A stretch of DNA of 64,000 nt from an uncultured Candidatus Saccharibacteria bacterium (GTDB taxonomy: Bacteria; Patescibacteriota; Saccharimonadia; CAILAD01; BJGX01), in NCBI GenBank assembly GCA_964512085.1, contig CAZEIU010000001.1, positions 7,647 through 71,646 of the forward strand. The letters are read 5' to 3'. Below the pieces are notes generated by a model. The model was not told the origin of the DNA. It saw nothing but the letters and a program-made list of their open reading frames with translations, and did no database searches. A program made the position numbers and the translations under genes. Below, one piece after another: positions 6,286-48,834 of this stretch. How positions within the stretch are numbered: the stretch's first letter is position 1; every line of letters begins with the position of its first letter.

Positions 6286-8031
6286 ATGAAAAATATTTTT
6301 AAAATGTTTCGCTTTATACCTGGCGAAAAACTGCGTATTTTTAGCATAATTATTTTTAGTATTATCGGCGGATTAGTAAACACCGTAATACCTATACTGT
6401 TTAAAAACCTTATTAATCAAATTTCGCAAGCTACTTTACGAAATAATTTTGAGGTCGTTTACAAAATACTATTACTTATAATTGCAATATTCTTAGCTGA
6501 ACAAGTCCTTTTATTATTCAAAGAAAAGGTATCAGATACCTTTAGAATGCATGTAATGACAAAGTTAAGACTGGCTGTGTATCCTAAGATATTATCATTA
6601 GATATAGCTTACACCGAGAAACATCAGCCTGGATCAATCTTGCAAAAAATAAATCAAGGAATTGGCGATTTTGTAAATTGGATATTTAATTTGAGCGAAT
6701 GGATAGGAACACTTATTACATCGACTATTTTTATCTTAATTGTTTTATGGTACCAAAACATATGGCTTGGGCTTATATACACCTTCACTGTCGTAGTTAT
6801 GATATACATTACCAAGAAAAAAACTATTAGCCAAAAGCCATATATGAAACGTGCCAACATATTGCAAGAAAAATTCTCGGGCAAGCTTAATCAAACACTT
6901 TCTCACCTCGAAACCATCAAAACCATGTCGGCTGAAAAAATAACTTCAGTACAATTTAAAAAAACCAACGAGCAATTAAAAAATGAAAGGCTAAAACAAT
7001 TTGCTGTGCAGCGTCGCTATAATTTTTTGAGAGATTTTATTGGCGCAATAGGTGTAGGATTAGGGCTGCTAGCGACGACATATCTTATTACCAAAAAATC
7101 ATTTAGCGCTGGCGATATATTCTTGGTAGCTCTCTACTCTAGGACCCTAATGAACTCTATTCAGCCATTAGGTTTCTTAGTACAACAAACATCTGAGGTT
7201 AATTTTACCTCATCAAGACTTATTGATTTTCTTGAGACAGCACCGATAGTTTCAGATCGTGTTGAATCCGAAAAACTAGAGAAGTTGGAGTCGTTAGTAT
7301 TTAAAAACGTTACTTACGATTATCCCGATGGCAAAAAAGGTGCAGTTAGATCGGTGAGTTTTGAAATTGATTCTAGTAAGACTGTTGCTCTAGTTGGACC
7401 TTCGGGCGTTGGCAAATCTACACTTACAAAACTTATCTTAAGATTTTATACTCCAACCAAAGGACACATTGAACTCAACGGAAATGAAATTGCAAATTAT
7501 CAACAGAATAGCATAAGAGAACGAATTGGTGTTGTTATGCAAGACGTAGCTTTATTTAATTCTACAATTTTAGAAAATCTACAAATAGCCAATGCCAAAG
7601 CCTCTAAAGAACAAATTATTAATGCAGCCAAACAAGCTAATGCCGATGAGTTTATTCGCGAGCTTCCCAAGGGCTACAAGACTTTAGTTGGTGAACGTGG
7701 CGTAAAGCTTAGCGGTGGCCAAAAACAACGTATCGCTATAGCTAGGGCCATACTTAAAGATCCAGATCTTATTATTCTCGATGAAGCTACAAGTGCTTTA
7801 GATAGCGAAAGTGAAAGATTAGTACAAGATGGCTTACAAAAACTTATGAAAAACCGTAGCGCACTAGTTATTGCGCACCGCTTAAGCACCGTAATGCACG
7901 CCGATGAAATATTAGTGCTCCAAAAAGGTACCATTGTAGAACGCGGAACTCACCAAGAACTTATTAAGTATGGTGGGCTTTATAAAAAGTTATTTGAGAT
8001 GCAATCGGCAAGTGGAAAGGTTAGATTATAA
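6286..8031 (+). CDS. ABC transporter, fused permease/ATP-binding (exporter, MsbA-like)
   Basis: Six-TM N-terminal half, then an NBD with Walker A (GPSGVGKST), signature LSGGQKQRIAIARA and Walker B (IILDEATSALD). A TTGTCA...TATAAT-like promoter sits in the divergent region 6143-6285. Confidence 0.9.
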   Translation: MKNIFKMFRFIPGEKLRIFSIIIFSIIGGLVNTVIPILFKNLINQISQATLRNNFEVVYKILLLIIAIFLAEQVLLLFKEKVSDTFRMHVMTKLRLAVYPKILSLDIAYTEKHQPGSILQKINQGIGDFVNWIFNLSEWIGTLITSTIFILIVLWYQNIWLGLIYTFTVVVMIYITKKKTISQKPYMKRANILQEKFSGKLNQTLSHLETIKTMSAEKITSVQFKKTNEQLKNERLKQFAVQRRYNFLRDFIGAIGVGLGLLATTYLITKKSFSAGDIFLVALYSRTLMNSIQPLGFLVQQTSEVNFTSSRLIDFLETAPIVSDRVESEKLEKLESLVFKNVTYDYPDGKKGAVRSVSFEIDSSKTVALVGPSGVGKSTLTKLILRFYTPTKGHIELNGNEIANYQQNSIRERIGVVMQDVALFNSTILENLQIANAKASKEQIINAAKQANADEFIRELPKGYKTLVGERGVKLSGGQKQRIAIARAILKDPDLIILDEATSALDSESERLVQDGLQKLMKNRSALVIAHRLSTVMHADEILVLQKGTIVERGTHQELIKYGGLYKKLFEMQSASGKVRL

Positions 8032-9585: not shown

Positions 9586-11639
9586 TAAACCTCTATTACT
9601 ACAGGTAAGACAATAGGGTTTCGCTTAGTCACTTTGTAAAGCAAATTGCTAAGCTCATCGCGCATTCGTGCCTTTACTGCTGGTGAATTTGGTGGTGTTT
9701 TGGGGTTACGACGAGCAAAGATGTTTTTGACAATTGCTCTAGACTTATTCATAAGCTCTTCATTGTCTTTAACATATATAAAGCCTCTCGAGATAATGTC
9801 TGGGCTAGTTACCAACTTACCAGTTTTGCGATTCACGGTAGCAATTACCGTAAATATGCCATCGCTAGCCATCGCCAAACGATCTTTAAGCACAATCTCT
9901 TGTACATCGCCTATACCACTACCATCTATTAGCACCGAGCCAGTTTGTACGATTGGTCCTAGCTTGACCTCACCGTCTTTGGCCTCTAGTGTTTGACCGT
10001 TTTCGATTACAAACACATTCTCTGGCTTAACCACGCCGCTACGCTTGGCAATCTCGGAGTTGTGCACCATATGATGAACTTCACCGTGAATTGGTAAGTA
10101 GTATTTAGGTCGAACCAACTCTATCATTTCTTTAACTTCTTCATAGTAAGCATGCCCCGAGGTGTGCATAATACCTAAATCATCAAAATCTTTGGTGGCT
10201 TCTTGGTAAACATACGGCCCCCATCTAAAGATATCGTCTACCATACCCCATACCGATTTCTCATTACCAGGTATAATTGAGCTCGATAGCACTACTACAT
10301 CTGAAGGCTTGAGTTTTACATCTTTGTGTTCGCCCTGCCCCATCCGTACTAAGCCAGAGTTCTCTTCGCCTTGGTGTCCGGTAGTAAGTACGGCTACTTC
10401 ACCATCTTGATACTTACTAACATCGGCTGATTTTATCAAAACTCCAGGTGGAACTTTGACGTAGCCGAGCTTTACAGCTATCTCCATATTAGATATAAGA
10501 CTACGGCCAGCAAGAGCTAACTTACGTTTGGCTTTGTGGGCAGCATCAACAAACACCTGAATACGATCTACTTGTGAGGCAAAAGAACTAATGATTACTC
10601 TCTTATTGTAATTACGTACAAATATTTCGTCGAGAGTTTTAATAATTTCTTTCTCTGATGGACTATTGCCCACTTTTTCACAACTAGTGCTATCACACAT
10701 CAGCATTAACACACCTTCGTCGCCAAGCTCTTTGAGTCGAGTCTTGTTACTAGGCTTGCCCGAAAGTGGGTCGTCATCAAATCGCCAATCACCAGTATTT
10801 ACAATTGTGCCTACTGGAGTTTTTATAGCAATACTACATGCGTCTGGTATAGAGTGAGTAATTCGAATAAATTCTACCTGAAAAACTCCTAGCTGAATCT
10901 TTTCGCCAGAGTCTTGGTTGACGGTGCGAATTTCGGGCTTAAATGGTAGCTTGTATTCTTCTAGTTGTCGCTCTATAAATTTGGTAGTAAAGTTTGCAGC
11001 GTATATTGGTGCTGGTAGTTTAGGCAAAATAAAAGGTATGCCTCCTACATGATCCATGTGGGCGTGAGTTATAAGGTGAGCTCTAATTTTGTCTTTGCGT
11101 TCCTCTAAGTAGTGTGTGTCTGGAATAATATAGTCTATTCCGGGCATGTCTGGGCCAGGAAACATAAAGCCAAGGTCCATAACTATAATGTCGTTTTCGT
11201 ATTCTAACGCCATCATGTTTTTACCAATCTTATCTAGACCACCAAGCGGAATAATCTTGAGCTTACCGGCATCGGCTTTGCTCATACCTACTTTTTGCGG
11301 TTTTGGCTTAAAGCTGTTGCCGTTGCTGTTTTCATTAAAGCTTCCTTCAGAAAACACTGCTGGCCCTCGGTCGTAACGACGACGCATAGCGTGAGGGTTA
11401 CTGCCTCTGTGGCCACCACCCTGTCGATTCTTGTTATTAGCACCCTGTTTATTATTATTGTTGTAGCTTTTTTTATTGGGTTGCTGTTGATTGCTGTTAG
11501 GCTTTTGTTGCGACTGAGCACTTTTATTGGCGCTTTGATTAGTGTTTTGGTTGGCAGCTCGAGCTGGTTTGGCCTCTCTACCACTCAAGTCTTGAGCGGT
11601 TAGAGGGCGGCTATTTAATGATTTTTTGTTTGAATCCAT
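9585..11639 (-). CDS. rnj: ribonuclease J with ~130-aa N-terminal low-complexity (Q/N/K-rich) extension
   Basis: Metallo-beta-lactamase motif HAHMDHVGG, beta-CASP region and C-terminal domain characteristic of RNase J. The N-terminal NQ-rich tail is atypical. Confidence 0.85.
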   Translation of the reverse strand: MDSNKKSLNSRPLTAQDLSGREAKPARAANQNTNQSANKSAQSQQKPNSNQQQPNKKSYNNNNKQGANNKNRQGGGHRGSNPHAMRRRYDRGPAVFSEGSFNENSNGNSFKPKPQKVGMSKADAGKLKIIPLGGLDKIGKNMMALEYENDIIVMDLGFMFPGPDMPGIDYIIPDTHYLEERKDKIRAHLITHAHMDHVGGIPFILPKLPAPIYAANFTTKFIERQLEEYKLPFKPEIRTVNQDSGEKIQLGVFQVEFIRITHSIPDACSIAIKTPVGTIVNTGDWRFDDDPLSGKPSNKTRLKELGDEGVLMLMCDSTSCEKVGNSPSEKEIIKTLDEIFVRNYNKRVIISSFASQVDRIQVFVDAAHKAKRKLALAGRSLISNMEIAVKLGYVKVPPGVLIKSADVSKYQDGEVAVLTTGHQGEENSGLVRMGQGEHKDVKLKPSDVVVLSSSIIPGNEKSVWGMVDDIFRWGPYVYQEATKDFDDLGIMHTSGHAYYEEVKEMIELVRPKYYLPIHGEVHHMVHNSEIAKRSGVVKPENVFVIENGQTLEAKDGEVKLGPIVQTGSVLIDGSGIGDVQEIVLKDRLAMASDGIFTVIATVNRKTGKLVTSPDIISRGFIYVKDNEELMNKSRAIVKNIFARRNPKTPPNSPAVKARMRDELSNLLYKVTKRNPIVLPVVIEV

Positions 11640-18531: not shown

Positions 18532-18597
18532 TTTTATTCAAACTTTTTTGTTGAGATCCTTAAGGACCTCAAATAATGAGGCCCCTAAGGGGTTTTG

Positions 18598-18940
18598 TGG
18601 AGCTGGGGGGAATCGAACCCCCGTCCAGCCTTACAGAAAAATTACATCGCTACGACCATTCCCAATATTTGAGTTCTCAGCTACTCCAGCCTGGGTGGCT
18701 TGCTGAATCGTCTTTCCGAATCGTCAACCCAACTTTCTGGGTAAGTCAGCGGTCTTTGCCAGCTGTCACCTCCACTTCTGTTGCCAGGCTGTGGTAGATG
18801 GCCCCGAATCTTCGCACTCAGTGCGATTTTCGAACAACTTTGGGTTTTAGGCCGCGGTTGTTGGGGTGCCCCGTTTTACGAGTCTGAGCAACTCGGGTCG
18901 CAATATAGCTTCTGCAAGGATGTCGATACCGATCAGCCCC
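18598..18940 (-). ncRNA. ssrA: tmRNA (transfer-messenger RNA)
   Basis: Minus-strand 5' end GGGGCUGAUCGG pairs with 3' end CAGCUCCA, giving a 7-bp acceptor stem with G3:U70. T-arm GGACGGGGGUUCGAUUCCCCC immediately precedes the 3' end. ~343 nt, CCA not encoded. Internal tag frame not confidently assigned. Confidence 0.85.
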
Positions 18941-19295: not shown

Positions 19296-20235
19296 TGCAC
19301 TCTCCTTCTTCTCGTCGGAAAAATAAAGGTAGAAATAGAAAAAGAGCTAAGTTCACCTCAAGCAAGGGTGAGCCTAAACTATCGCGGTTGCGATAGACGA
19401 GTCGCTCCAAAGCTACTACTCTCGTTTTAAGTTGCTCAAGTAGTATCAGCTAGAAAACCCAGCTGTGCTTGAGTGAGCATGAGAAATGGTCGTAAGGAAC
19501 ATCTCGGGACTATCCCGACAGAAACTTTCGAACTAGTTAAATGTTCAAAAACTTTTGTTGAGACCCTCCGAGACCCCAACAAAGTTGGAGCCCCGAAGGG
19601 GTGATGAGACAACACCTAGCTGTACTGAGCTTTCGCTAGATGGTTGAGCCGTCTGGTTAGGCTCAGGCATTATGTCTCCTTGCCCGGATCAGGATTTGCT
19701 GATGCATCTCAGCCTGATCAACTCTACCCTCTCTTGCGCATGCATCATTATGCACTTCGGAGCAGGATAGAGATTTTTGGGCAGCTGCGCTCAATCCGTC
19801 GGCAGACGAAGAGCGACGAGCCGCCACGAGCTTGACACTCCCTTTCGCGAACGCTTGCGGTTTCACCCGCTCACGCACCGGGGAAGGAATGTCGTCATTA
19901 AGCCACTAGGGTCCCCGGATCCAATTGTTTTACTACCCACCTCTCTCGAGGTCACCCGTTTGCGGGTGTCGGAGTATACCTCCGCAGGCTGGATCATTAC
20001 TTACCTCCCTACTGTCTGCGAGCGCTTCTGCAGAACTTCATCCTCACCCGGCGAACCGTTTTAGATGAAGCCTCCCCTGTAACGCCGGGAAGCAGATTGT
20101 CGTGGCAGCGATTTTAGCTGTAAGGCTCCCCACCTCCCATCGGCCCGATCGTGTCGAGTAGCGACGAAGAAGCTCTTACAGCAAGGTTGAGATGAGGCAG
20201 CGGTCCCGCCATGACCCTCAACCTAATTTTTTGAA

Positions 20236-20295
20236 AGCATTTGGCTTTCAGGCTCAATACAATGTTTGGTGTACTAAGCTTGAAAGCCAAATGCT
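20236..20295. repeat. long hairpin: 15-bp perfect stem (AGCATTTGGCTTTCA / TGAAAGCCAAATGCT), extendable to ~19 bp, ~21-nt loop, preceded by a T-run
   Basis: Read directly in the AT-richer core of the GC-rich island. Confidence 0.6.
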
Positions 20296-20598
20296 ATTTT
20301 GTAGGTACTACTATTTGCAATAACCATTTGCTACTGCCAAAGTCCGTAATGACATTACCAATCTGTCCACAATAATTTTTTAATATATGACACTGGCGCA
20401 TTACAGACTGTGGCAATATAGCAAAGTACAGTTTTCGTTCTAAGTGGCAACATGGGTTGCCGAACTCATCAGTGCTGGCACTACCAGCAGAACTGCCCCC
20501 TAGGGCAAAAACACTAGGGGTAGAGATCCTTCCAAGGGAAGGTTGAGCGTCATCTCTATGTGGCGCGCTGATTTTAGCTCGTGAGCTCGAGCAGTGGA

Positions 20599-20620
20599 AA
20601 TCTCTTGCGAGATTTTTTTA
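20599..20620 (+). terminator. rho-independent terminator-like hairpin (AATCTC-ttgc-GAGATT + T7)
   Basis: 6-bp stem followed by TTTTTTT on the plus strand; it closes a ~180-nt stretch (20440-20620) with at least three further short perfect hairpins. Confidence 0.4.
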
Positions 20621-20747
20621 AACAGGGCGCCACTATACCCTCGAGGTACAACACAGCTTTGTTGTGGGAGCTACCCCAGACCTTGTCTCACCGATTCTTT
20701 TTCTCTCGGTTTGACTTCTGTTGCCAGGGAGGTCAATCCCCCTCAAG

Positions 20748-20966
20748 TCACTGAGTGACTAGCTGTGGCGACCGGCGTGGGGGCACAGGCTCAACGTGGT
20801 TGTAGTCAACCTCGTCGTCTGCGAAGGACCCAAACGGGTACCCTCGCCCACAACTCGGGCAGATCCTCTGCCGAGTCGCGTCCCAGCCGGTGTACTTCAG
20901 CACCGTGTCATCTACGACACAGCGCTTCAGTTCCACCTTCTTCTTTCTCTTGGTAGGCATACACAA
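20748..20966 (-). CDS. small zinc-ribbon-like hypothetical protein (72 aa; may start at second ATG, 20960)
   Basis: MPTKRKKKVELKRCVVDD...ICPSCGRGYPFGSF...; a C-x2-C pair with a basic N-terminus; strongly GC-biased codons (CTG, GTG, GAC) foreign to this genome. Confidence 0.35.
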   Translation of the reverse strand: MCMPTKRKKKVELKRCVVDDTVLKYTGWDATRQRICPSCGRGYPFGSFADDEVDYNHVEPVPPRRSPQLVTQ

Positions 20967-21170
20967 ATCACTGTTTAAATGCTCTATGTGTGCCTACCAA
21001 TTTATTACAGGTAAAAGGTACTTTGGGTAGTATAGCAAAGAATATTATTTTTGTCAATACTTATTTACACTTTTTTTAGAGTTTGCAACTTCTTTCCTGT
21101 AGCTAATACTATATTTTGTGTTAATAACAAATATTTTTGTAAGGTTTATTAGTTTTTTTGTACGTAAAAA

Positions 21171-21188
21171 CCCGACATTAATGTCGGG
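21171..21188 (-). terminator. rho-independent terminator (CCCGACA-ttaa-TGTCGGG followed by T5 on the minus strand)
   Basis: 7-bp GC-rich stem; AAAAA on the plus strand at 21166-21170 gives a U-run in the minus sense. Terminates a minus-strand transcript coming from the GC-rich block 21240-21540. Confidence 0.5.
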
Positions 21189-21621
21189 TGATATGGTGTT
21201 GCCAGTAGTAATGGCGATATAGAGCCTTAATTACTATGGCAGAGATCGGTAATACTTACACTCCAGCTGTGTCGGTCGCGAAAGTGTCGCGCCTGCTAGA
21301 GGGAGACTTTTCTGCCGCACTGCTGTGTCTGCGTGATGAGTGACTGTGTGGCGGGTGGGTGGCCGAGAGTCTCAATCTCGACGCAATTTGGTAGGATCAA
21401 ATTCCTTCCATCCCTTTTCCTCTCCAGTGTTCAGCTGTTACCACTTGGGCCGCCCCAGGACCTTCCTGGGGCTCCTCGCTGCCCTCTCTTGAGGGCGAAG
21501 AAAGGATCGTCAGATCCCGTCCATGTATTACCCCCCCTTTAGAGAAGTGAGCGAGAACAGCTTTTACCAATATAACAGTTTAACTATTTTTTGTCAATAG
21601 TATTTGACAACAAAAAATATT

Positions 21622-25844: not shown

Positions 25845-26162
25845 TTAATGCTTTACATTAAATCTTAAAATATTGTCGCTATGATAGGCATTATCGTGCA
25901 ACCTTTGGTACTCGCAATAAACAGCCAGAGTGTCGTCTACACTAAGCTCTGAAATAATTTCTAAACGTCTAGCAGATCTATGGTAAGCTTTCATCCAGCC
26001 ACAATTAGGGCAAAACGTATCGACATTATTACCAAAACCTGTACATAAGTTACCGGCGTAATGCTCGCATGGCCCACTTGGATTGAGCTGTGGGGCACGG
26101 CCATTTGCTACACACATATTATCTACCCTTGCTCTTTTTGGTACTTTTGCGTACTTCGGCAT
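25845..26162 (-). CDS. small Cys-rich protein (C-x8-C-x9-C-x2-CGW motif); alternative start at 26117 (MCVANG...)
   Basis: Track ORF MPKYAK...; contains GPCEHYAGNLCTGFGNNVDTFCPNCGWMKAYH. Its 5' region overlaps the upstream 56-aa paralog in another frame. Confidence 0.45.
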   Translation of the reverse strand: MPKYAKVPKRARVDNMCVANGRAPQLNPSGPCEHYAGNLCTGFGNNVDTFCPNCGWMKAYHRSARRLEIISELSVDDTLAVYCEYQRLHDNAYHSDNILRFNVKH

Positions 26163-26334: not shown

Positions 26335-27216
26335 TTATTTCTTGGGTAGTTTTTGGCAATAAGCACAATAGTGTGTTCCTCTACCCGCAACACGGGTCTT
26401 TTGTATTGGTTTGCCACAATTGGGGCAAGGTTTGCCATTGAGCCGAAAGACTTTGGCGAATTTAAGATAACTGCCTTTTTTGCCCTCGGCATCAACGTAG
26501 TTACGATCACTACTGCCACCTTGAGCTATACTTAGTTTCATCACCTCTCTGATAGCATTATATAATCTCTTAAGCTTAATTGTACTGATGTCTTGCACCT
26601 TTGAGGCAGGATGTATACGCGCCATAAACAAGCTTTCGTCGGCATATATATTGCCCACACCAGCAAGCACAGTTTGATCTAGTATCGCGGCTTTGATAGC
26701 AGATTTTTTGCGCTTTTGAAGTGCAGAATTAAATTGTTCGAAGGTATAAGAATCTTCTAACGGCTCGGGGCCTAACTTTTGTAAGAACACATTGTTTGTA
26801 TAAAGATCTTTGGTGGGCTCGAGCTTAATCCAGCCAAATTTTCGCTGGTCATTAAAATACAATTTGGCCCCACCTACAAAAGTAAATATCACTCTAGTAG
26901 ATCTGTTGGGTAGCTGGCTTACTAAACTATCGTTGGGGTGGCCGGCCCCAAAATGAGTATTGCCATCGTCATACACCAACTGTCCAGTCATCTTGAGATG
27001 AATAAGTAGACTATAGTCGCTACTAAGATCGATAATAATAACCTTTCCTCGTCTATCTACTTTGATAATCTTAGCGCCTATAAGGTACTTATCGATAAGT
27101 TCTTGGGAGTTTGGGAACCCTTTGGGCCAATCAAAAGTAACACTCTTAATTTGGAGATTCGGTAAAAGGCGTTGCAATCCTATTCTAACTGTTTCTACTT
27201 CTGGTAATTCGGGCAT
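26335..27216 (-). CDS. mutM: formamidopyrimidine-DNA glycosylase (Fpg/MutM)
   Basis: N-terminal MPELPEVE catalytic start, H2TH region and a C-terminal zinc finger (CPNCGKPIQKTRVAGRGTHYCAYCQ). Confidence 0.85.
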   Translation of the reverse strand: MPELPEVETVRIGLQRLLPNLQIKSVTFDWPKGFPNSQELIDKYLIGAKIIKVDRRGKVIIIDLSSDYSLLIHLKMTGQLVYDDGNTHFGAGHPNDSLVSQLPNRSTRVIFTFVGGAKLYFNDQRKFGWIKLEPTKDLYTNNVFLQKLGPEPLEDSYTFEQFNSALQKRKKSAIKAAILDQTVLAGVGNIYADESLFMARIHPASKVQDISTIKLKRLYNAIREVMKLSIAQGGSSDRNYVDAEGKKGSYLKFAKVFRLNGKPCPNCGKPIQKTRVAGRGTHYCAYCQKLPKK

Positions 27217-27294
27217 TTGCTAACATTATATACTATTGACTAAAGTTTTGTATGGTGTTAAAATTTTTAAGTTCCGCACCTTTAGCCAACAGGA

Positions 27295-27645
27295 GTGAAG
27301 TTGAAAATCGCACTTGTGGTAGATGATGAGAGAATATTGAATGTACCAGATGTAGACGAAGTAGTGCATGTTCAGTCGTCATCTGAAGCTATTGCCTATC
27401 TTCAGTCTCACCCAGTAATTCATCAGTTGTGGCTAGATCACGATCTAGGTCCAGATGATGTCATTATGAGACTGGTTGATCATATCGCCGAAGAAGCTTT
27501 CTTTGGCCGAGGCTACGATATTGACGAAATCGTAGTTCATACCATGAACCCTGTTGGTTCGGATAACATTATCCGCACACTTGAACGTTACTACCCTATT
27601 CGCAGAGCCTCGGTTCTACCCTATATTGAGAGTATTCACTCCTAA
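27295..27645 (+). CDS. standalone receiver (REC/CheY-fold)-like domain protein
   Basis: 116 aa. KIALVVDDE at the beta1 end, LWLDHDLG at the expected phospho-acceptor position, VVHTMNP at the beta4 Thr position; the conserved Lys near beta5 is not evident. No output domain. Confidence 0.45.
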   Translation: MKLKIALVVDDERILNVPDVDEVVHVQSSSEAIAYLQSHPVIHQLWLDHDLGPDDVIMRLVDHIAEEAFFGRGYDIDEIVVHTMNPVGSDNIIRTLERYYPIRRASVLPYIESIHS

Positions 27646-27653
27646 TTAATCTG

Positions 27654-27681
27654 CCCCTCGACATTATAGCGAGGGGTTTTT
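27654..27681 (+). terminator. rho-independent terminator (CCCCTCG-acattatag-CGAGGGG + T5)
   Basis: Read directly after the REC-like gene. Confidence 0.65.
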
Positions 27682-27697
27682 ACTTTGTTATTACTTA

Positions 27698-27733
27698 TTG
27701 ACTTTTTATAGTTTTTATGCTATTTTGTAATAT
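27698..27733 (+). promoter_or_regulatory. sigma70-like promoter (TTGACT-17 nt-TATTTT, overlapping TGtAATAT extended -10)
   Basis: Read directly upstream of the 74-aa membrane ORF. Confidence 0.45.
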
Positions 27734-27779
27734 GGTCTAATTGATAAATTGGGCCAAACCTTAACAGAAAGAGAGACCC

Positions 27780-28004
27780 TTGCAGAACGCCTTCGACAAT
27801 CTTTTCAAGATAATTATGGCAATGGCTGCTGTGGTGCTAGTAATGGCCTTTGTGGCTAATTACCCGGTACTGTTTGGAATCTTGATAGTTGCGATAATTT
27901 TTGTAGCTTTGTTTGTACGCGAACGGCGTCGCAATGCTGAGCTTCACACCGATAATCGTGCTCTCGAGCGTGATCTCGACCGAGCTCGCGGACGTCGCAG
28001 TTAA
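27780..28004 (+). CDS. small membrane protein (TTG start; alternative ATG downstream)
   Basis: One long hydrophobic helix (MAMAAVVLVMAFVANYPVLFGILIVAIIFVALFV) followed by a charged tail. Confidence 0.4.
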   Translation: MQNAFDNLFKIIMAMAAVVLVMAFVANYPVLFGILIVAIIFVALFVRERRRNAELHTDNRALERDLDRARGRRS

Positions 28005-28177
28005 TACAATTATTAGATACTACTACCAAGCCACCGGGGTCACTGTTAATCTCGCCAGATTATCACACCCCTTGGCTTTGGCCTCTCTTTCATTTATTAC
28101 TCTACAAATTGAGTTTGTACTGATGAGCTTCTGCTAATAAATATCGCAAAGCGAAAGTAATAAATAGTCAATAATTA

Positions 28178-28206
28178 TTGACATTTTTGTTATTATGTGA
28201 TAATAT
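28178..28206 (+). promoter_or_regulatory. near-consensus sigma70 promoter (TTGACA-17 nt-TAATAT)
   Basis: Read directly; ~40 nt upstream of the AAAGGAGAC RBS and GTG start of the next ORF. Confidence 0.55.
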
Positions 28207-28244
28207 CTTAGAGTTCCCCGCACCTCTATTCAAAGGAGACTTAG

Positions 28245-28847
28245 GTGCAAAAGCAACTTGTAAAAGTTGGGGCAGTACACGTACGATTCTTGGTAACTAC
28301 ACTACCGGCGCTTGCCAGTAATATTGAAGTCGGACATGAAACTGTTTATGACCTGACACGAAAGCTGAATAGCGCAACTGGCGTAAGTGTAATTGACTCT
28401 GACGATTCACGATCGGTCAACTGCACCAATCTGCTATCCCAGATAGAAAACGCTGGTTTTGTGCTAGTATCTGTAAGCATTCAAAAGCAGCTTTCGAACA
28501 GTAAGTTCTCTAAGGTCAAGTACGTTGTTAACTTCCACTTCGTTCCAATGGATGTTGCTATAGCACACGCACCGAACTTTAGTGAGCATAAAATTGCTAG
28601 GTCGCTTTTTAGTGAGTTTATTTCGATGAACTATTGGCATCTGATGGCCTTCGAGAACCCTGGCGAAGAAAAGCCCTGGCTTTCTATCGCCTGCAATAAC
28701 CGAGTGCAGAGGTATAAGGCTGATGACATGAGTAGACCGATTATGAAATACGATCGTGACTCTGACGGTGAAAAGGCAGGAGAGCCCTATCCCCTCCCAG
28801 CAGACTCGGTAATTACGTTCGATGGAGCATCTGTTACTCTAAATTAA
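28245..28847 (+). CDS. hypothetical protein (200 aa, GTG start)
   Basis: AAAGGAGAC RBS, own promoter and terminator; no motif recognised. Confidence 0.5.
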   Translation: MQKQLVKVGAVHVRFLVTTLPALASNIEVGHETVYDLTRKLNSATGVSVIDSDDSRSVNCTNLLSQIENAGFVLVSVSIQKQLSNSKFSKVKYVVNFHFVPMDVAIAHAPNFSEHKIARSLFSEFISMNYWHLMAFENPGEEKPWLSIACNNRVQRYKADDMSRPIMKYDRDSDGEKAGEPYPLPADSVITFDGASVTLN

Positions 28848-28864
28848 TATTTAGTGTTTTTCTG

Positions 28865-28891
28865 CCCCTCACCCATGTGGTGAGGGGTTTT
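28865..28891 (+). terminator. rho-independent terminator (CCCCTCAC-ccatgtg-GTGAGGGG + TTTT)
   Basis: Read directly. Confidence 0.65.
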
Positions 28892-28906
28892 ACCTTTTTA
28901 AAAAAA

Positions 28907-31789
28907 CTATAACTCTCCCCAATTTTTGCCAGTAGTAATTTCTACCTCTATGGGTACGGCGAATTTGTGTACCGACTCCATCTCGCTTTTTAGCAACTTA
29001 CCTATTTCGCTAGCTTGCGACTCTTTGCATTCAACTATTAATTCGTCGTGAATTTGAAGTATTAATTTGGCATCTTGAGGTAGTTTTTTGTGCACTTTTA
29101 TCATCGCTAGCTTCATCATGTCGGCCGCGGTACCTTGCAAAGGCATATTTACAGCCGCGCGCTCAGCTGCCGAACGAATAATAAAATTGTTTGATCTAAC
29201 ATCGGGGCATGGTCTTCGCCTGCCAAATAAAGTCTCGGTATAGCCTTTGTCGTGAGCAAATTTTTTAATGCTAGCTATATAGTCTGCCACTGCTTTACGA
29301 GTATTGAAATATCTGTCTATAAATTCTTTGGCTTGCTCGTAACTAAACCCAGTCGCCACCGCCAAACCATGGGTGTTCATACCATATAGCACCCCAAAAT
29401 TGATTGCTTTAGCGGCATATCGTTGTTCGGGCTTTACTTGCGACGGTTTTATATCAAACATCTCGGCTGCTGTTTGGGTATGAATGTCGGCCCCTTCTCT
29501 AAATGCATTAATCATAGGCTTGTCGCCAGCCAAATCGGCAGCTAGTCTAAGTTCTATTTGGCTATAATCGGCCGATACAAAAACATTACCTTTGTTGGCT
29601 ATAAAGGCCGTTCTAATTTCTTTGCCTACAGGAGTACGAATAGGAATATTTTGTAGGTTTGGATTGGTACTATTGAGCCTACCGGTTTGGGCTATTGTCT
29701 GATTGTAGCTAGTGTGAATTTTATTATCGCTTAGAACAAATTTTGGTAAAGCTTCAACGTAAGTCGACATTAATTTTGACAGTTCGCGATACTCAAACAA
29801 CTCATCAATAATTGGGTGCTTACCCTTAAGCTTCTCAAGCTCGCTGGCCGCTGTACTAACACCGGTTTTTATTTTTTTGAGCCCAGTAGTGTCAATTTTG
29901 AGTTCATCAAATAATATCACTTTGAGTTGTTGAGTAGAGCTAATATTAAACTGCTTACCAGCGTGTTTCCAGATAGATTTTTTAATTTGATCTAACCGGT
30001 CGCTAAATTTGGTTTGCAAAGTTTGCATGAATTTCACATCCAGCGTGACTCCTGCGATCTCCATATCGGCCAAAACTTCAATAAGTGGCCACTCAATATC
30101 TTCGGCAAGTTTGTGCAATTTTTTTGTTCCAGTTGGTTCTTGGCTAAGCTGTGTAGACAATTTTTTATATAATCGCCACGCTATATCGGCATCTTCGGCA
30201 GCATAAGGCCCAGCTACTTCAATTTCTACTTGATTAAAAGTGAGTTGTTCTTTGCCCTTTTTGCCCAATAATTCTTCGATACCTATCATTGATATGCCAA
30301 GCTCATTGTAGGCCAACTCTGAGAGAGACTGAGCTCTGCCGATGGGGTTAATTAAAAACGCCGCTATCATAGTATCAAAAACAATATTGTTCAATTTAAT
30401 GCCACAGCCATTAAAAACCTCATAGTCATATTTAAGATTGTGACCAATCTTACCGATCTTATTACTTTCTAAGATGGGTTTGAGCGAATTTAAAACATAC
30501 TCTTTATCTAATTGACCATCGGCAAGCTTAAAATTATCATACTCAGATGAAATTCCAGAAAGAAGCGAGGCTTGCAAGTGAGACGTAGAAACGCTACGTT
30601 GAACGCGAACCGTAGCTGATGACGCAGAAGTTCGCTGAGTATGAGGATTTTCTGAGGTATGACCTACGGGTATATAGTAAGCTTCGCCTTCTTTGAAACT
30701 CACCGATACTCCTACCAAGTGTGCCTCTAGAGCATTTGTGCTAGTTGTCTCGGTATCTATAGAAATTACTTTTTGCTGTTTTAAATTTGCTACGAGTTTA
30801 TTGAGTAATTCTTGGCTTGTTACTATGTGGTATTTGGCTTTTTTGAGATGTTCTCTATTGTATTTCTCGGCCTCGCTAAAACTACTGCTATCCCCATTAT
30901 TTTGTATAGGATCTTTAGTAATATCTTGGTTGGGCAACTTAGACAGCAAGCTCTTAAACTCTAGTTTGTGAAAAAGATCATAAACTTTGTTTTTATCATA
31001 CTCATGCAAAAGCGCATCACTTAACTTAAAATCTAGCTTAAGATCGAGAGCTATTTTTGAAAGCTTAAGACTTAAATAAGCATTATCTTTGTCTTTTTCG
31101 AGTTTGTTTTTTACGGCCGGTTTGAGGTTGTCGAGGTTTTTGTAAATATTATCGAGTGTTTTGTATTGTGCTACTAGCTCAGTAGCAGTTTTGTCGCCTA
31201 CTCCAGCCACTCCCGGTATGTTGTCGCTACTATCTCCTTTAAGGGCCTTGTAGACCACAAATTCATCTGGGGTAACCCCATAACGATCTTCTACAGCTTT
31301 GGCATCATAAATAACTGTATCGGTAAATCCTTTGCGCATAGTGTAGACACTCACATTTTTGTTAACCAACTGTAACTCATCCATATCGCCAGTTACAATC
31401 ACTACTTGATACTCCTTGCAGTATTGCTGTGAGAGCGTACCAATTACATCATCGGCTTCATAGCCGTTTTTTTCAATAAGTGGAATATTAAATGCTGCTA
31501 CAACATCTTTAGTAAGTGGCATTTGAGCAATCAATTCATCGGCAGTTTTCACGCGCGTGGCTTTATAATCTTTGTAGTCGTCGTGCCGAAAGGTTTTGCC
31601 AGGAGCGTCCCAGGCCACAATTGCAAAGTCGGGCTTAAGTTCGCGCAAAGCCAGCAACATCATCATGGTGAACCCATAAACTGCGTTGGTAGGTGTGCCA
31701 TCTTTAGTAGTGAGATACGGAATAGCGTGAAAACCTCTATGCAATAGAGCATGGCCGTCAAATATAACGATTTTTTTGAGTTTAGACAT
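28907..31789 (-). CDS. polA: DNA polymerase I (5'-3' exonuclease, 3'-5' exonuclease and polymerase domains)
   Basis: 960 aa; N-terminal FEN-like domain, exonuclease motif region (ISIDTETTS), polymerase motifs A/B/C (DYSQIELR, RRAAKAINFGVLYG, QIHDELIVE). Confidence 0.95.
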   Translation of the reverse strand: MSKLKKIVIFDGHALLHRGFHAIPYLTTKDGTPTNAVYGFTMMMLLALRELKPDFAIVAWDAPGKTFRHDDYKDYKATRVKTADELIAQMPLTKDVVAAFNIPLIEKNGYEADDVIGTLSQQYCKEYQVVIVTGDMDELQLVNKNVSVYTMRKGFTDTVIYDAKAVEDRYGVTPDEFVVYKALKGDSSDNIPGVAGVGDKTATELVAQYKTLDNIYKNLDNLKPAVKNKLEKDKDNAYLSLKLSKIALDLKLDFKLSDALLHEYDKNKVYDLFHKLEFKSLLSKLPNQDITKDPIQNNGDSSSFSEAEKYNREHLKKAKYHIVTSQELLNKLVANLKQQKVISIDTETTSTNALEAHLVGVSVSFKEGEAYYIPVGHTSENPHTQRTSASSATVRVQRSVSTSHLQASLLSGISSEYDNFKLADGQLDKEYVLNSLKPILESNKIGKIGHNLKYDYEVFNGCGIKLNNIVFDTMIAAFLINPIGRAQSLSELAYNELGISMIGIEELLGKKGKEQLTFNQVEIEVAGPYAAEDADIAWRLYKKLSTQLSQEPTGTKKLHKLAEDIEWPLIEVLADMEIAGVTLDVKFMQTLQTKFSDRLDQIKKSIWKHAGKQFNISSTQQLKVILFDELKIDTTGLKKIKTGVSTAASELEKLKGKHPIIDELFEYRELSKLMSTYVEALPKFVLSDNKIHTSYNQTIAQTGRLNSTNPNLQNIPIRTPVGKEIRTAFIANKGNVFVSADYSQIELRLAADLAGDKPMINAFREGADIHTQTAAEMFDIKPSQVKPEQRYAAKAINFGVLYGMNTHGLAVATGFSYEQAKEFIDRYFNTRKAVADYIASIKKFAHDKGYTETLFGRRRPCPDVRSNNFIIRSAAERAAVNMPLQGTAADMMKLAMIKVHKKLPQDAKLILQIHDELIVECKESQASEIGKLLKSEMESVHKFAVPIEVEITTGKNWGEL
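30537..30644. repeat. 108-bp in-frame insertion inside polA bounded by 10-bp terminal inverted repeats (TCATACTCAG / CTGAGTATGA), GC-enriched
   Basis: TIRs read directly; the length is a multiple of 3. It corresponds to an extra ~36-aa Ser/Thr-rich loop at a position where E. coli Pol I has a 16-aa linker between the VAH and LLKP blocks. Confidence 0.35.
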
Positions 31790-48542: not shown

Positions 48543-48749
48543 TTACTCTTGGGTACTTGGTTGAACCCAATAGTCATCAAATTGCCAGCCGGCCAATTGG
48601 TCATTCTCAAATTGTCTTTTTTGTCTACGAGTAAGTTGTCTGTTTTTATTCTTATTAATGCGTCGGGTATCGGCTTGAGGCGCCCGACAGATTGTTACTA
48701 CAATAATAGTTAGTACAACCACAACGGCAGTAAAAAGATATTTTCTCAC
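48543..48749 (-). CDS. small secreted/signal-anchored basic peptide (68 aa)
   Basis: N-terminal signal-like segment MRKYLFTAVVVVLTIIVVTICRA, then an R/K/Q-rich tail. Confidence 0.3.
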   Translation of the reverse strand: MRKYLFTAVVVVLTIIVVTICRAPQADTRRINKNKNRQLTRRQKRQFENDQLAGWQFDDYWVQPSTQE

Positions 48750-48834
48750 CGCTTCTCCTCTCGCGAAGGCTTATTTTGCCCTGCGTGAATTGCAAATGTA
48801 GATTACCATTAATTGGGCAATACTACAAGAAAAG

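Follow-up and report, generated by a model that had tools for sequence, protein, structure and literature searches.

The mutM–polA gap of a Saccharibacteria genome: a probable variable islet with a predicted hammerhead ribozyme behind a small membrane-protein gene

Do three small genes that lie between mutM and polA and read against both of them belong to one system, or have they come to share a place? The question is raised by a 64-kb stretch of a Saccharibacteria (TM7) genome, referred to here as the window (64,000 nucleotides), in which the mutM–polA gap encodes a receiver-like protein of the cREC family, a membrane protein of 74 residues (tm74) and a protein of 200 residues (orf200). Comparison with about 170 related loci, designated by L numbers, leads us to answer, with a probability of roughly 0.6, that the gap is a variable accessory islet holding three independently transcribed genes rather than one system, and that tm74 forms with a predicted hammerhead ribozyme a recurrent unit of its own. 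The original prediction, made from the sequence, had taken the three genes for a horizontally acquired mini-cassette; this is not supported, as they are found in different combinations and have separate histories. It listed no ribozyme at the locus, where a type III hammerhead (28092–28165) was found downstream of the 74-residue gene.

Bounding the gap on the left is mutM (formamidopyrimidine-DNA glycosylase, 26335–27216, − strand; Pfam Fapy_DNA_glyco, H2TH and zf-FPG, NCBIfam PRK01103 at 269 bits), the product of which has its top matches at 79–80% identity, all in Saccharibacteria metagenome-assembled genomes. On the right is polA (DNA polymerase I, 28907–31789, − strand; Pfam DNA_pol_A, 5_3_exonuc_N and DNA_pol_A_exo1). 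Both are conserved flanks: the order dnaG–rpoD–polA–gap–mutM–holA–rpsT is kept across 80 Saccharibacteria loci, with a gap of ~0.5–5 kb that differs in content. Hidden Markov model (HMM) scans of 82 Saccharibacteria sequences (81 loci and the window) detect cREC in four (window, L081, L001 and L003), always divergent from mutM, orf200 in four (window, L081, L001 and L004), always convergent with polA, and the 74-residue family in three (window, L003 and L022), at variable positions. The genes are accessory, as had been proposed, and at these frequencies are not universal housekeeping genes. A metagenome scan later added L091, in which all three families are present. The mutM-divergent slot is occupied by cREC only in the window, L081, L171 (100% identical in sequence to the window), L001, L003 and L091.

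The gene histories read from these loci differ. Identity of the window cREC protein to those of L001 and L003 is 59%, compared with 58% for holA and 62% for dnaG; cREC has diverged at about the rate of the core genes and keeps a constant slot, consistent with vertical inheritance in a small clade after one old acquisition. In this clade a small Fic protein normally follows cREC, and the window lineage has lost it. Both tm74 and orf200 have atypical codon usage. In L081, the closest relative, cREC is followed directly by orf198 under a single promoter, and tm74 and the hammerhead are absent. Encoded in the polA–mutM gap of L001–L004 and L091 is a CCA-adding enzyme (PolyA_pol head and HD domain; for example, L001 6415–7869) that is absent from the entire 64-kb window and has been moved or lost in the window lineage. 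The window interval looks like a reduced form of a larger region comprising cREC–Fic, the CCA-adding enzyme, a membrane peptide and orf200, rather than like an insertion.

Independent transcription of the three genes is suggested by the signals around them. All three open reading frames (ORFs) lie on the + strand, antiparallel to both flanks and at the coordinates originally given, and each has a ribosome-binding site. Upstream of the cREC gene, inside the 84-bp divergent spacer adjoining mutM, is promoter-like sequence P1 (27236–27264, +; TTGACT-17-TAAAAT, 10 of 12 matches in the promoter scan). Preceding tm74 is P2 (27698–27726, +; TTGACT-17-TATTTT), which aligns with the sole L081 promoter and from which transcription would start at ~27733–27736, and preceding orf200 is P3 (28178–28206, +; TTGACA-17-TAATAT), a partial direct repeat of P2 (repeat D2, 21 nt, 81% identity, spacing 480 bp). 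All three carry a TG extension, and together with the orthologous L081 promoter share the pattern TATTGAC...TG-n-TAxxAT; as a class, promoter-like sites are only mildly enriched in the sequence (16 observed, 9.8 ± 3.4 in shuffles).

The cREC gene ends at an intrinsic terminator (27653–27681, +) with an 8-bp G+C stem followed by UUUUU (ΔG −15.0, z −3.2), missed by the consensus scan because its loop is 9 nt long. The orf200 terminator (28864–28888, +), convergent with the end of polA and kept in L081, has a 10-bp stem followed by a U tract (ΔG −20.3, z −4.1). P2, P3 and both terminators were already part of the original prediction, and folding supports the latter two; its claim of a promoter and a terminator for every gene holds for the promoters, to which P1 is added, but not for the terminators. 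Downstream of tm74 no canonical terminator was found, and in its place are a strong hairpin (28026–28081) and then the hammerhead.

This hammerhead (28092–28165, +) begins 88 nt past the tm74 stop codon and has a complete core and three helices. Helix III, which is open, pairs 28092–28100 with 28157–28165 (9 bp); helix I is a hairpin (28103–28119) and helix II (28127–28152) contains a bulge and an 11-nt loop. Between helices I and II lies the core CUGAUGA (28120–28126; C3, U4, G5, A6, N7, G8 and A9), and following helix II is GAAA (28153–28156; G12, A13 and A14, with A15.1). The predicted cleavage site, preceded by U28101 and C28102, is between C28102 and U28103. All core nucleotides are present, including the A15.1–U16.1 pair and H17, and the descriptor scan gives helices of 7, 4(+3) and 9 bp. 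By these features the motif is a well-formed hammerhead, for which self-cleavage to 2′,3′-cyclic phosphate and 5′-OH ends is predicted.

A strict descriptor (core CUGAUGA) matches two sites in the window (28092–28165, +, and 20428–20496, −) and none in 400 random 64-kb sequences (25.6 Mb); the null for a relaxed descriptor (core CUGANGA, three topologies) is two matches in 150 random sequences of 64 kb. A ‘type I’ hammerhead at 28115–28200 was rejected as an artefact of the relaxed descriptor that reuses the same core. With a covariance model derived from four other Saccharibacteria loci, the window hammerhead scores 37.5 bits (E ~5e-6 in 1.5 Mb). In an alignment of eight hammerheads, 99.2% of cells pair, compared with 33–41% in slid controls; compensatory changes on both sides are seen in 13 of the 17 pairs, and A15.1–U16.1 and G10.1–C11.1 are invariant.

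Hammerheads flanking single genes are known from bacteria and prophages, with a function stated to be unclear (Perreault et al. 2011, PMC3088659). The window motif shares with them the canonical core, the three-helix junction and a position between same-strand genes, where cleavage would split a longer transcript into single-gene RNAs. It differs from them in lying in a Saccharibacteria genome without integrase or prophage context, in being tied to a small membrane-protein gene and in being preceded by a tract complementary to the ribosome-binding site of that gene. No paper linking hammerheads to Saccharibacteria was found in a literature search.

The arrangement recurs in L091, L042 and L054. 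In all four loci the order is small membrane-protein gene, structured spacer, C/U-rich tract and hammerhead, with the gene on the same strand and the hammerhead 88 (window), 93 (L091), 134 (L042) or 133 nt (L054) past its stop codon. The window spacer is the hairpin at 28026–28081 (+; ΔG −23.5, z −4.3), and the C/U-rich, anti-Shine–Dalgarno-like tract (28080–28091, +) lies immediately 5′ of the ribozyme; equivalent spacers in the other three units (z −3.5 to −8.1) end C/U-rich, and none resembles a canonical terminator. In L042 and L054 (MutM ~60% identical) the unit lies within the polA–mutM gap. In L091 it is on the opposite side of mutM from that of the window, within ~1.5 kb of cREC. In the window the unit, with a promoter ahead of the gene, is self-contained and measures about 480 bp: an alignment with L081 shows tm74, the hairpin and the hammerhead as ~480 bp of additional sequence flanked by two promoter copies. 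The single L081 promoter resembles a hybrid, P2 in its 5′ half and P3 in its 3′ half, and the difference fits gain or loss of the unit through recombination between the promoter repeats.

The tm74 protein itself (27780–28004, +, TTG start) is composed of a conserved N-terminus of the form MQxxFDNLxK, a stretch of ~37 hydrophobic residues and an Arg-rich tail. It had been described as a single-helix membrane peptide; the hydrophobic stretch, interrupted by N-Y-P, would on a reading of the sequence suffice for two short helices. Homologs in L003, L091 and L022 are detected with HMM E-values of 1e-36 to 6e-25. No Pfam, NCBIfam or PADLOC family matches tm74, and matches to LapA, holins and spanins are weak and non-significant. 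Elsewhere in the window an ORF of ~75 residues (48546–48770, −) has a weak match to the tm74 HMM (E 0.006) and could be a paralog; no adjoining hammerhead was found.

In each unit the sequence just before the ribozyme can pair with the 5′ untranslated region (UTR) of the membrane-protein gene. The pairing segments of the window 5′ UTR (27741–27776, +; inverted repeat I2) include UGAUAAAU (27742–27749) and the ribosome-binding purine run GAAAGAGAG (27767–27775). The latter is complementary to CUCUCUUUC (28082–28090) within the C/U tract, and the former to AUUUAUUA (28092–28099), the 5′ strand of helix III. Duplex ΔG is −19.2 kcal/mol for the window, −20.5 for L091, −25.6 for L042 and −29.4 for L054; among 41 other ribosome-binding regions (means ~−6.5 to −9.5; window control −9.3 ± 3.1), none pairs as well in the window, L042 or L054, and one does in L091. 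When 5′ and 3′ regions are exchanged between units, each unit pairs most strongly with itself, or falls short of the strongest pairing by no more than 0.6 kcal/mol, the exception being the L054 5′ region with the L042 3′ tract (−26.2 versus −25.6). Between L042 and L054 there is a compensatory change, GGAAGGGG/CCCCUUCC versus GGAAAGGG/CCCUUUCC. Together these features are suggestive of a 5′–3′ fold-back in the units.

How such a fold-back might operate can be outlined for the window. Transcription from P2 would read through the spacer into the ribozyme, which would cut after C28102, setting the 3′ end of the mRNA, with a 2′,3′-cyclic phosphate, and detaching it from orf200. The freed 3′ tail, consisting of the C/U tract and the 5′ strand of helix III, would then pair with the 5′ UTR and ribosome-binding site, hiding the latter and leaving tm74 mRNA translationally silent, as type I toxin mRNAs are. 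All three steps, from self-cleavage through the placing of the mRNA end to translational silencing, are predictions.

Type I toxin mRNAs inhibited by 5′–3′ fold-back include those of hok/sok of plasmid R1 and aapA1/IsoA1 of Helicobacter pylori. The tm74 mRNA resembles them in encoding a small hydrophobic protein (74 residues, ~37 consecutive hydrophobic residues) and in being structured, with a predicted extreme 3′ end that could pair with the 5′ end and ribosome-binding site. The 3′ end in the window would be made by a ribozyme, however, whereas theirs is made by a terminator followed by exonuclease trimming, and tm74, with 74 residues and a long charged tail, exceeds most type I toxins in size. 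No convincing unit for an antisense RNA antitoxin was identified, nearby − strand sites being only weak promoter-like matches (9 of 12; 28203–28174), and a literature search found no natural link between hammerheads and type I toxins.

Upstream of this unit, the first gene of the gap encodes the receiver-like protein (27301–27645, +). Its start is more likely TTG 27301 than GTG 27295, because AGGAG lies 5 nt upstream and the resulting length equals that of the 114-residue L081 ortholog, P0002; the originally predicted REC-like identity stands, with a length of probably 114 residues and not the 116 obtained from the GTG. The protein matches Pfam PF20274 (cREC) over profile positions 2–88 of 88 with 59.9 bits (gathering cut-off 27, E 4e-16), in agreement with the suggestion of a cyclic-phosphate-processing receiver family, and the orthologs P0001 and P0002 likewise match this family. 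The predicted structure is a receiver-like Rossmannoid fold, with helix 1 missing in the model. Invariant between the window, three Saccharibacteria orthologs and three phage homologs are D8, D9, R11, D46, H47, D48, H80, N83, P84 and R96; this alignment of seven sequences contains no invariant Lys, and the phage homologs stop ahead of strand 5. It bears out the earlier observation that the acidic pocket, here built of Asp-Asp and Asp-His-Asp, and phospho-acceptor Asp are kept and the conserved Lys is absent.

The cREC family owes its definition to computational work (Iyer, Anantharaman, Krishnan, Burroughs and Aravind, 2021 and 2022; PMC7824862, PMC9503650); it has never been found alongside histidine kinases, and its links are to RNA ligases, Nudix, sirtuin, 2H and KptA proteins. 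Phosphoesterase activity is a prediction for the entire family (PMC9503650), and family membership predicts for the window protein such an activity on 2′,3′-cyclic phosphate RNA ends or on cyclic ADP-ribose phosphate. It is a further member, from a chromosomal, non-phage lineage, of a known family that has never been experimentally characterised. With the rest of the family it shares a score well over threshold, a REC-like fold, the Asp pair and acceptor-position Asp, the lack of an adjoining histidine kinase (there is none in the mutM–polA interval) and relatives that are mostly in phages. It differs in being a solo chromosomal gene in a bacterium of the candidate phyla radiation (CPR), and in that the recurrent partners in its clade are a small Fic protein and a nearby CCA-adding enzyme.

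None of the usual partners (RNA ligase, Nudix, sirtuin, 2H or KptA) is among the interval neighbours mutM, tm74, orf200 and polA. The same five are missing from the top neighbours in a wider census of the 80 closest metagenomic cREC relatives, in which Pfam was run on 130 directly adjoining genes and matched 59 families. The nearest approach to such partners is the CCA-adding enzyme of L001–L004 and L091, along with the RNA ligase gene 2.6 kb from the homolog in phage Mildred21. The original likening to receivers of RNA-repair or conflict systems was right as to the family, but the RNA-repair partners are absent from the locus.

Phage and viral relatives of the window cREC comprise 24 phage records and 77 viral contigs, with phage identities of 33–43%. 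A recent phage origin is unsupported, the top viral or phage identity being just 37–43%. The closest homologs from cultured phages are in those of Streptomyces (17 records), Gordonia (5) and Bacillus (2); in Streptomyces phage Mildred21 the homolog lies within a tRNA/tmRNA cluster with an RNA ligase gene 2.6 kb downstream. Actinobacteria are the usual hosts of Saccharibacteria (PMC10633639), which may or may not be fortuitous. In L081 and L001, cREC is immediately preceded on its own strand by a different membrane peptide of 64–67 residues (L081 3935–4138, +; L001 8836–9030, −), such that small membrane peptides recur beside cREC in the clade of the window.

The third gene, orf200 (28245–28847, +; GTG start, AAGGAG 5 nt upstream), had been listed as encoding a protein of unknown function, and Pfam indeed gives no family for it; nor does Pfam match the family to which it belongs. 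An exhaustive profile search assigns to this family, which is found on CPR-type contigs, 99 clusters, nearly all of 150–230 residues. Conserved motifs include N138–P139, S147, R153 and D172, and the fold is predicted confidently, with no structural neighbour of the model among solved structures. In the clade of the window orf200 always abuts polA. A link with cREC was considered and rejected: distant homologs adjoin GroEL, S1 or glutaredoxin genes, with no cREC there. The orf200 family is an orphan family, unlinked to cREC outside the clade of the window.

Several observations weigh against our interpretation of the gap and its ribozyme unit. The known units number only four and come from two pairs of related genomes; L003 and L022 have tm74 homologs but lack the ribozyme, and tm74 and the L042 and L054 proteins are only weakly alike (reciprocal HMM E-values of 2e-5 to 0.03). 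The Rfam Hammerhead_3 model (RF00008) matches 28098–28159 at 23.0 bits, under its gathering score of 48.5; at gathering thresholds, Rfam reports only tmRNA and tRNAs in the window and five relatives, and compact hammerhead candidates in L002 and L003 fail likewise. For the fold-back, purine-rich ribosome-binding sites pair somewhat with any C/U tract, and a sliding-window control ranks the pre-ribozyme tract in the top 0.1–3% rather than first (z −1.9 to −3.7; top 2.2% of 5915 windows within ±3 kb in the case of the window), on account of which the claim is one of top-ranking and not unique pairing. For cREC, no dominant partner emerges from the neighbour census (DUF1653 4, SUKH 3, Fic 2), and because the usual RNA-repair and nicotinamide adenine dinucleotide (NAD) partners are absent, the predicted activity is weakly anchored at this locus.

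Of the other explanations, the first concerns the Fic protein. In L001, L003 and L091, cREC is followed directly by a Fic-motif protein of 171–175 residues, with overlapping stop and start codons in L001, and in the distant phage-like contig L169 a Fic gene precedes cREC. These short proteins (164–175 residues, motif HPFxDGNGRVG; L001 7917–8444, −; L003 8557–9072, −; L091 6515–7030, +; L169 3414–3908, +) are confirmed as Fic domains by PF02661 (35.2 bits) and by the PADLOC assignments SoFic and PDC-S04. The gaps of the window and L081 contain neither Fic nor the CCA-adding enzyme. The window cREC could be the surviving half of a toxin–antidote-like pair, in which a target would be nucleotidylated by Fic, an action that cREC would undo or hold in check, and, with Fic lost here, an orphan of little current function. 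We consider this unlikely. The Fic-less lineage still conserves cREC (82% identity between the window and L081, all motif residues intact), which argues for continued selection; Fic is the immediate neighbour of just 2 of the 80 metagenomic cREC relatives; and neither of two papers on the cREC family supplies a biochemical precedent for the pairing with Fic or mentions it (PMC7824862, PMC9503650).

Alternatively, the three genes and the ribozyme might be one conflict or RNA-end-processing module. The hammerhead would leave a cyclic phosphate on the mRNA of a membrane toxin; cREC would open it, 3′ trimming would then remove the fold-back and turn translation on, with orf200 serving as an accessory or immunity factor. 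All the parts share a strand and span no more than 1.6 kb, cREC directly adjoins tm74 in the window and L003 and lies within ~1.5 kb of it in L091, and cREC proteins are predicted to process ends of the hammerhead type (PMC7824862, PMC9503650). The parts nevertheless come apart in other genomes: L003 has cREC and tm74 with no hammerhead, L081 has cREC and orf198 with neither tm74 nor hammerhead, L042 and L054 carry the membrane gene and hammerhead with no cREC within 10 kb, and relatives of orf200 occur without either partner. In the window there is a separate promoter for every gene and a separate terminator for two of them, and PADLOC matches none of the three proteins to a defence system. 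A hammerhead is present at 1 of the 80 metagenomic cREC loci (L091), and a general link between cREC and hammerheads was rejected on this count. A single module is therefore quite improbable, and there is similarly little prospect that the membrane-gene/hammerhead unit is a self-silencing toxin-like mRNA kept off until its cyclic-phosphate end is opened by the adjacent cREC and then trimmed.

It is still less probable that the motif at 28092–28165 is a chance or decayed, inactive structure and that the hairpin at 28026–28081 terminates the tm74 mRNA. Consistent with such a possibility are the sub-threshold Rfam score, the bulge and 11-nt loop of helix II, the A+U-rich stems and the U/C-rich stretch that follows the hairpin. 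That stretch is not a canonical U tract, however, and the intact core with its two invariant pairs, the failure of the strict descriptor to find any match in 25.6 Mb of random sequence, the detection by an independent covariance model and the repetition of the gene-to-ribozyme arrangement in three other loci all argue for a genuine hammerhead. Finally, we discount for the 114-residue protein the role of a conventional CheY-like, single-domain response regulator phosphorylated by a histidine kinase encoded elsewhere: it has in common with CheY (Response_reg, PF00072) a (βα)5-like REC fold, an acidic pocket and conserved Asp positions, but Pfam gives cREC_REC alone, with no PF00072 match even at E ≤ 1, the conserved Lys and, in the model, helix 1 are lacking, the family-specific His, Asn and Arg are kept, the phage homologs end before strand 5, the relatives are chiefly in phages, and no histidine kinase partner is found at the locus or among the 25 most frequent Pfam families of the neighbour census.

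Hammerheads also occur elsewhere in these genomes. The second strict match in the window (20428–20496, −) is a type III hammerhead with counterparts in L001 (15771–15820, +) and L003 (16165–16216, +); it shares a strand with the tmRNA gene, which follows ~1.1–1.5 kb downstream, and scores 27.7 bits in Rfam and 39–73 bits with a covariance model built in this analysis; its synteny suggests a conserved role near ssrA. Surrounding it in the window, between the tmRNA gene (18595–18940, −) and a gene for a TrmB-like regulator, are ~2.2 kb (19430–21620) with no convincing ORF and a G+C content of 0.45–0.53, compared with 0.39 for the window. Besides the hammerhead and a weak, spurious-looking mir-81 match, no Rfam family is found in this region at E ≤ 1, and it could be a large non-coding RNA or the remnant of a mobile element. 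In L002, a compact hammerhead (11381–11436, +) is located 109 nt past an ORF of 261 residues, with a canonical terminator directly after it; because of this example, hammerheads in these genomes are not confined to small membrane genes.

Cysteine-rich proteins without a Pfam family adjoin mutM in the window (25845–26162, −), L001 (9229–9864, −) and L002 (5146–5781, −). The 105-residue ORF of the window has a weak tblastn match (38%) in L002 at 7004–7213, apart from the 211-residue cysteine-rich ORF of that locus.

Taken as a variable islet, the locus adds to the cREC family a chromosomal, non-phage lineage with a recurrent Fic partner, and brings to light in orf200 a CPR-type family of ~200 residues with a confidently predicted fold that matches nothing solved. 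To our knowledge, almost nothing is known about gene regulation in Saccharibacteria, which are ultrasmall epibionts. The most interesting element of the interval is the unit of membrane gene, hammerhead and fold-back. Bacterial hammerheads were catalogued by the hundreds in 2011 and their role has been unclear since (PMC3088659); the association of a hammerhead with one type of gene, and with a tract complementary to the ribosome-binding site of that gene, yields a model of bacterial hammerhead function that can be tested by mutation. Were the self-silencing mRNA and its opening by cREC to prove true, bacterial hammerheads would gain a defined job, and the cREC family a natural substrate.

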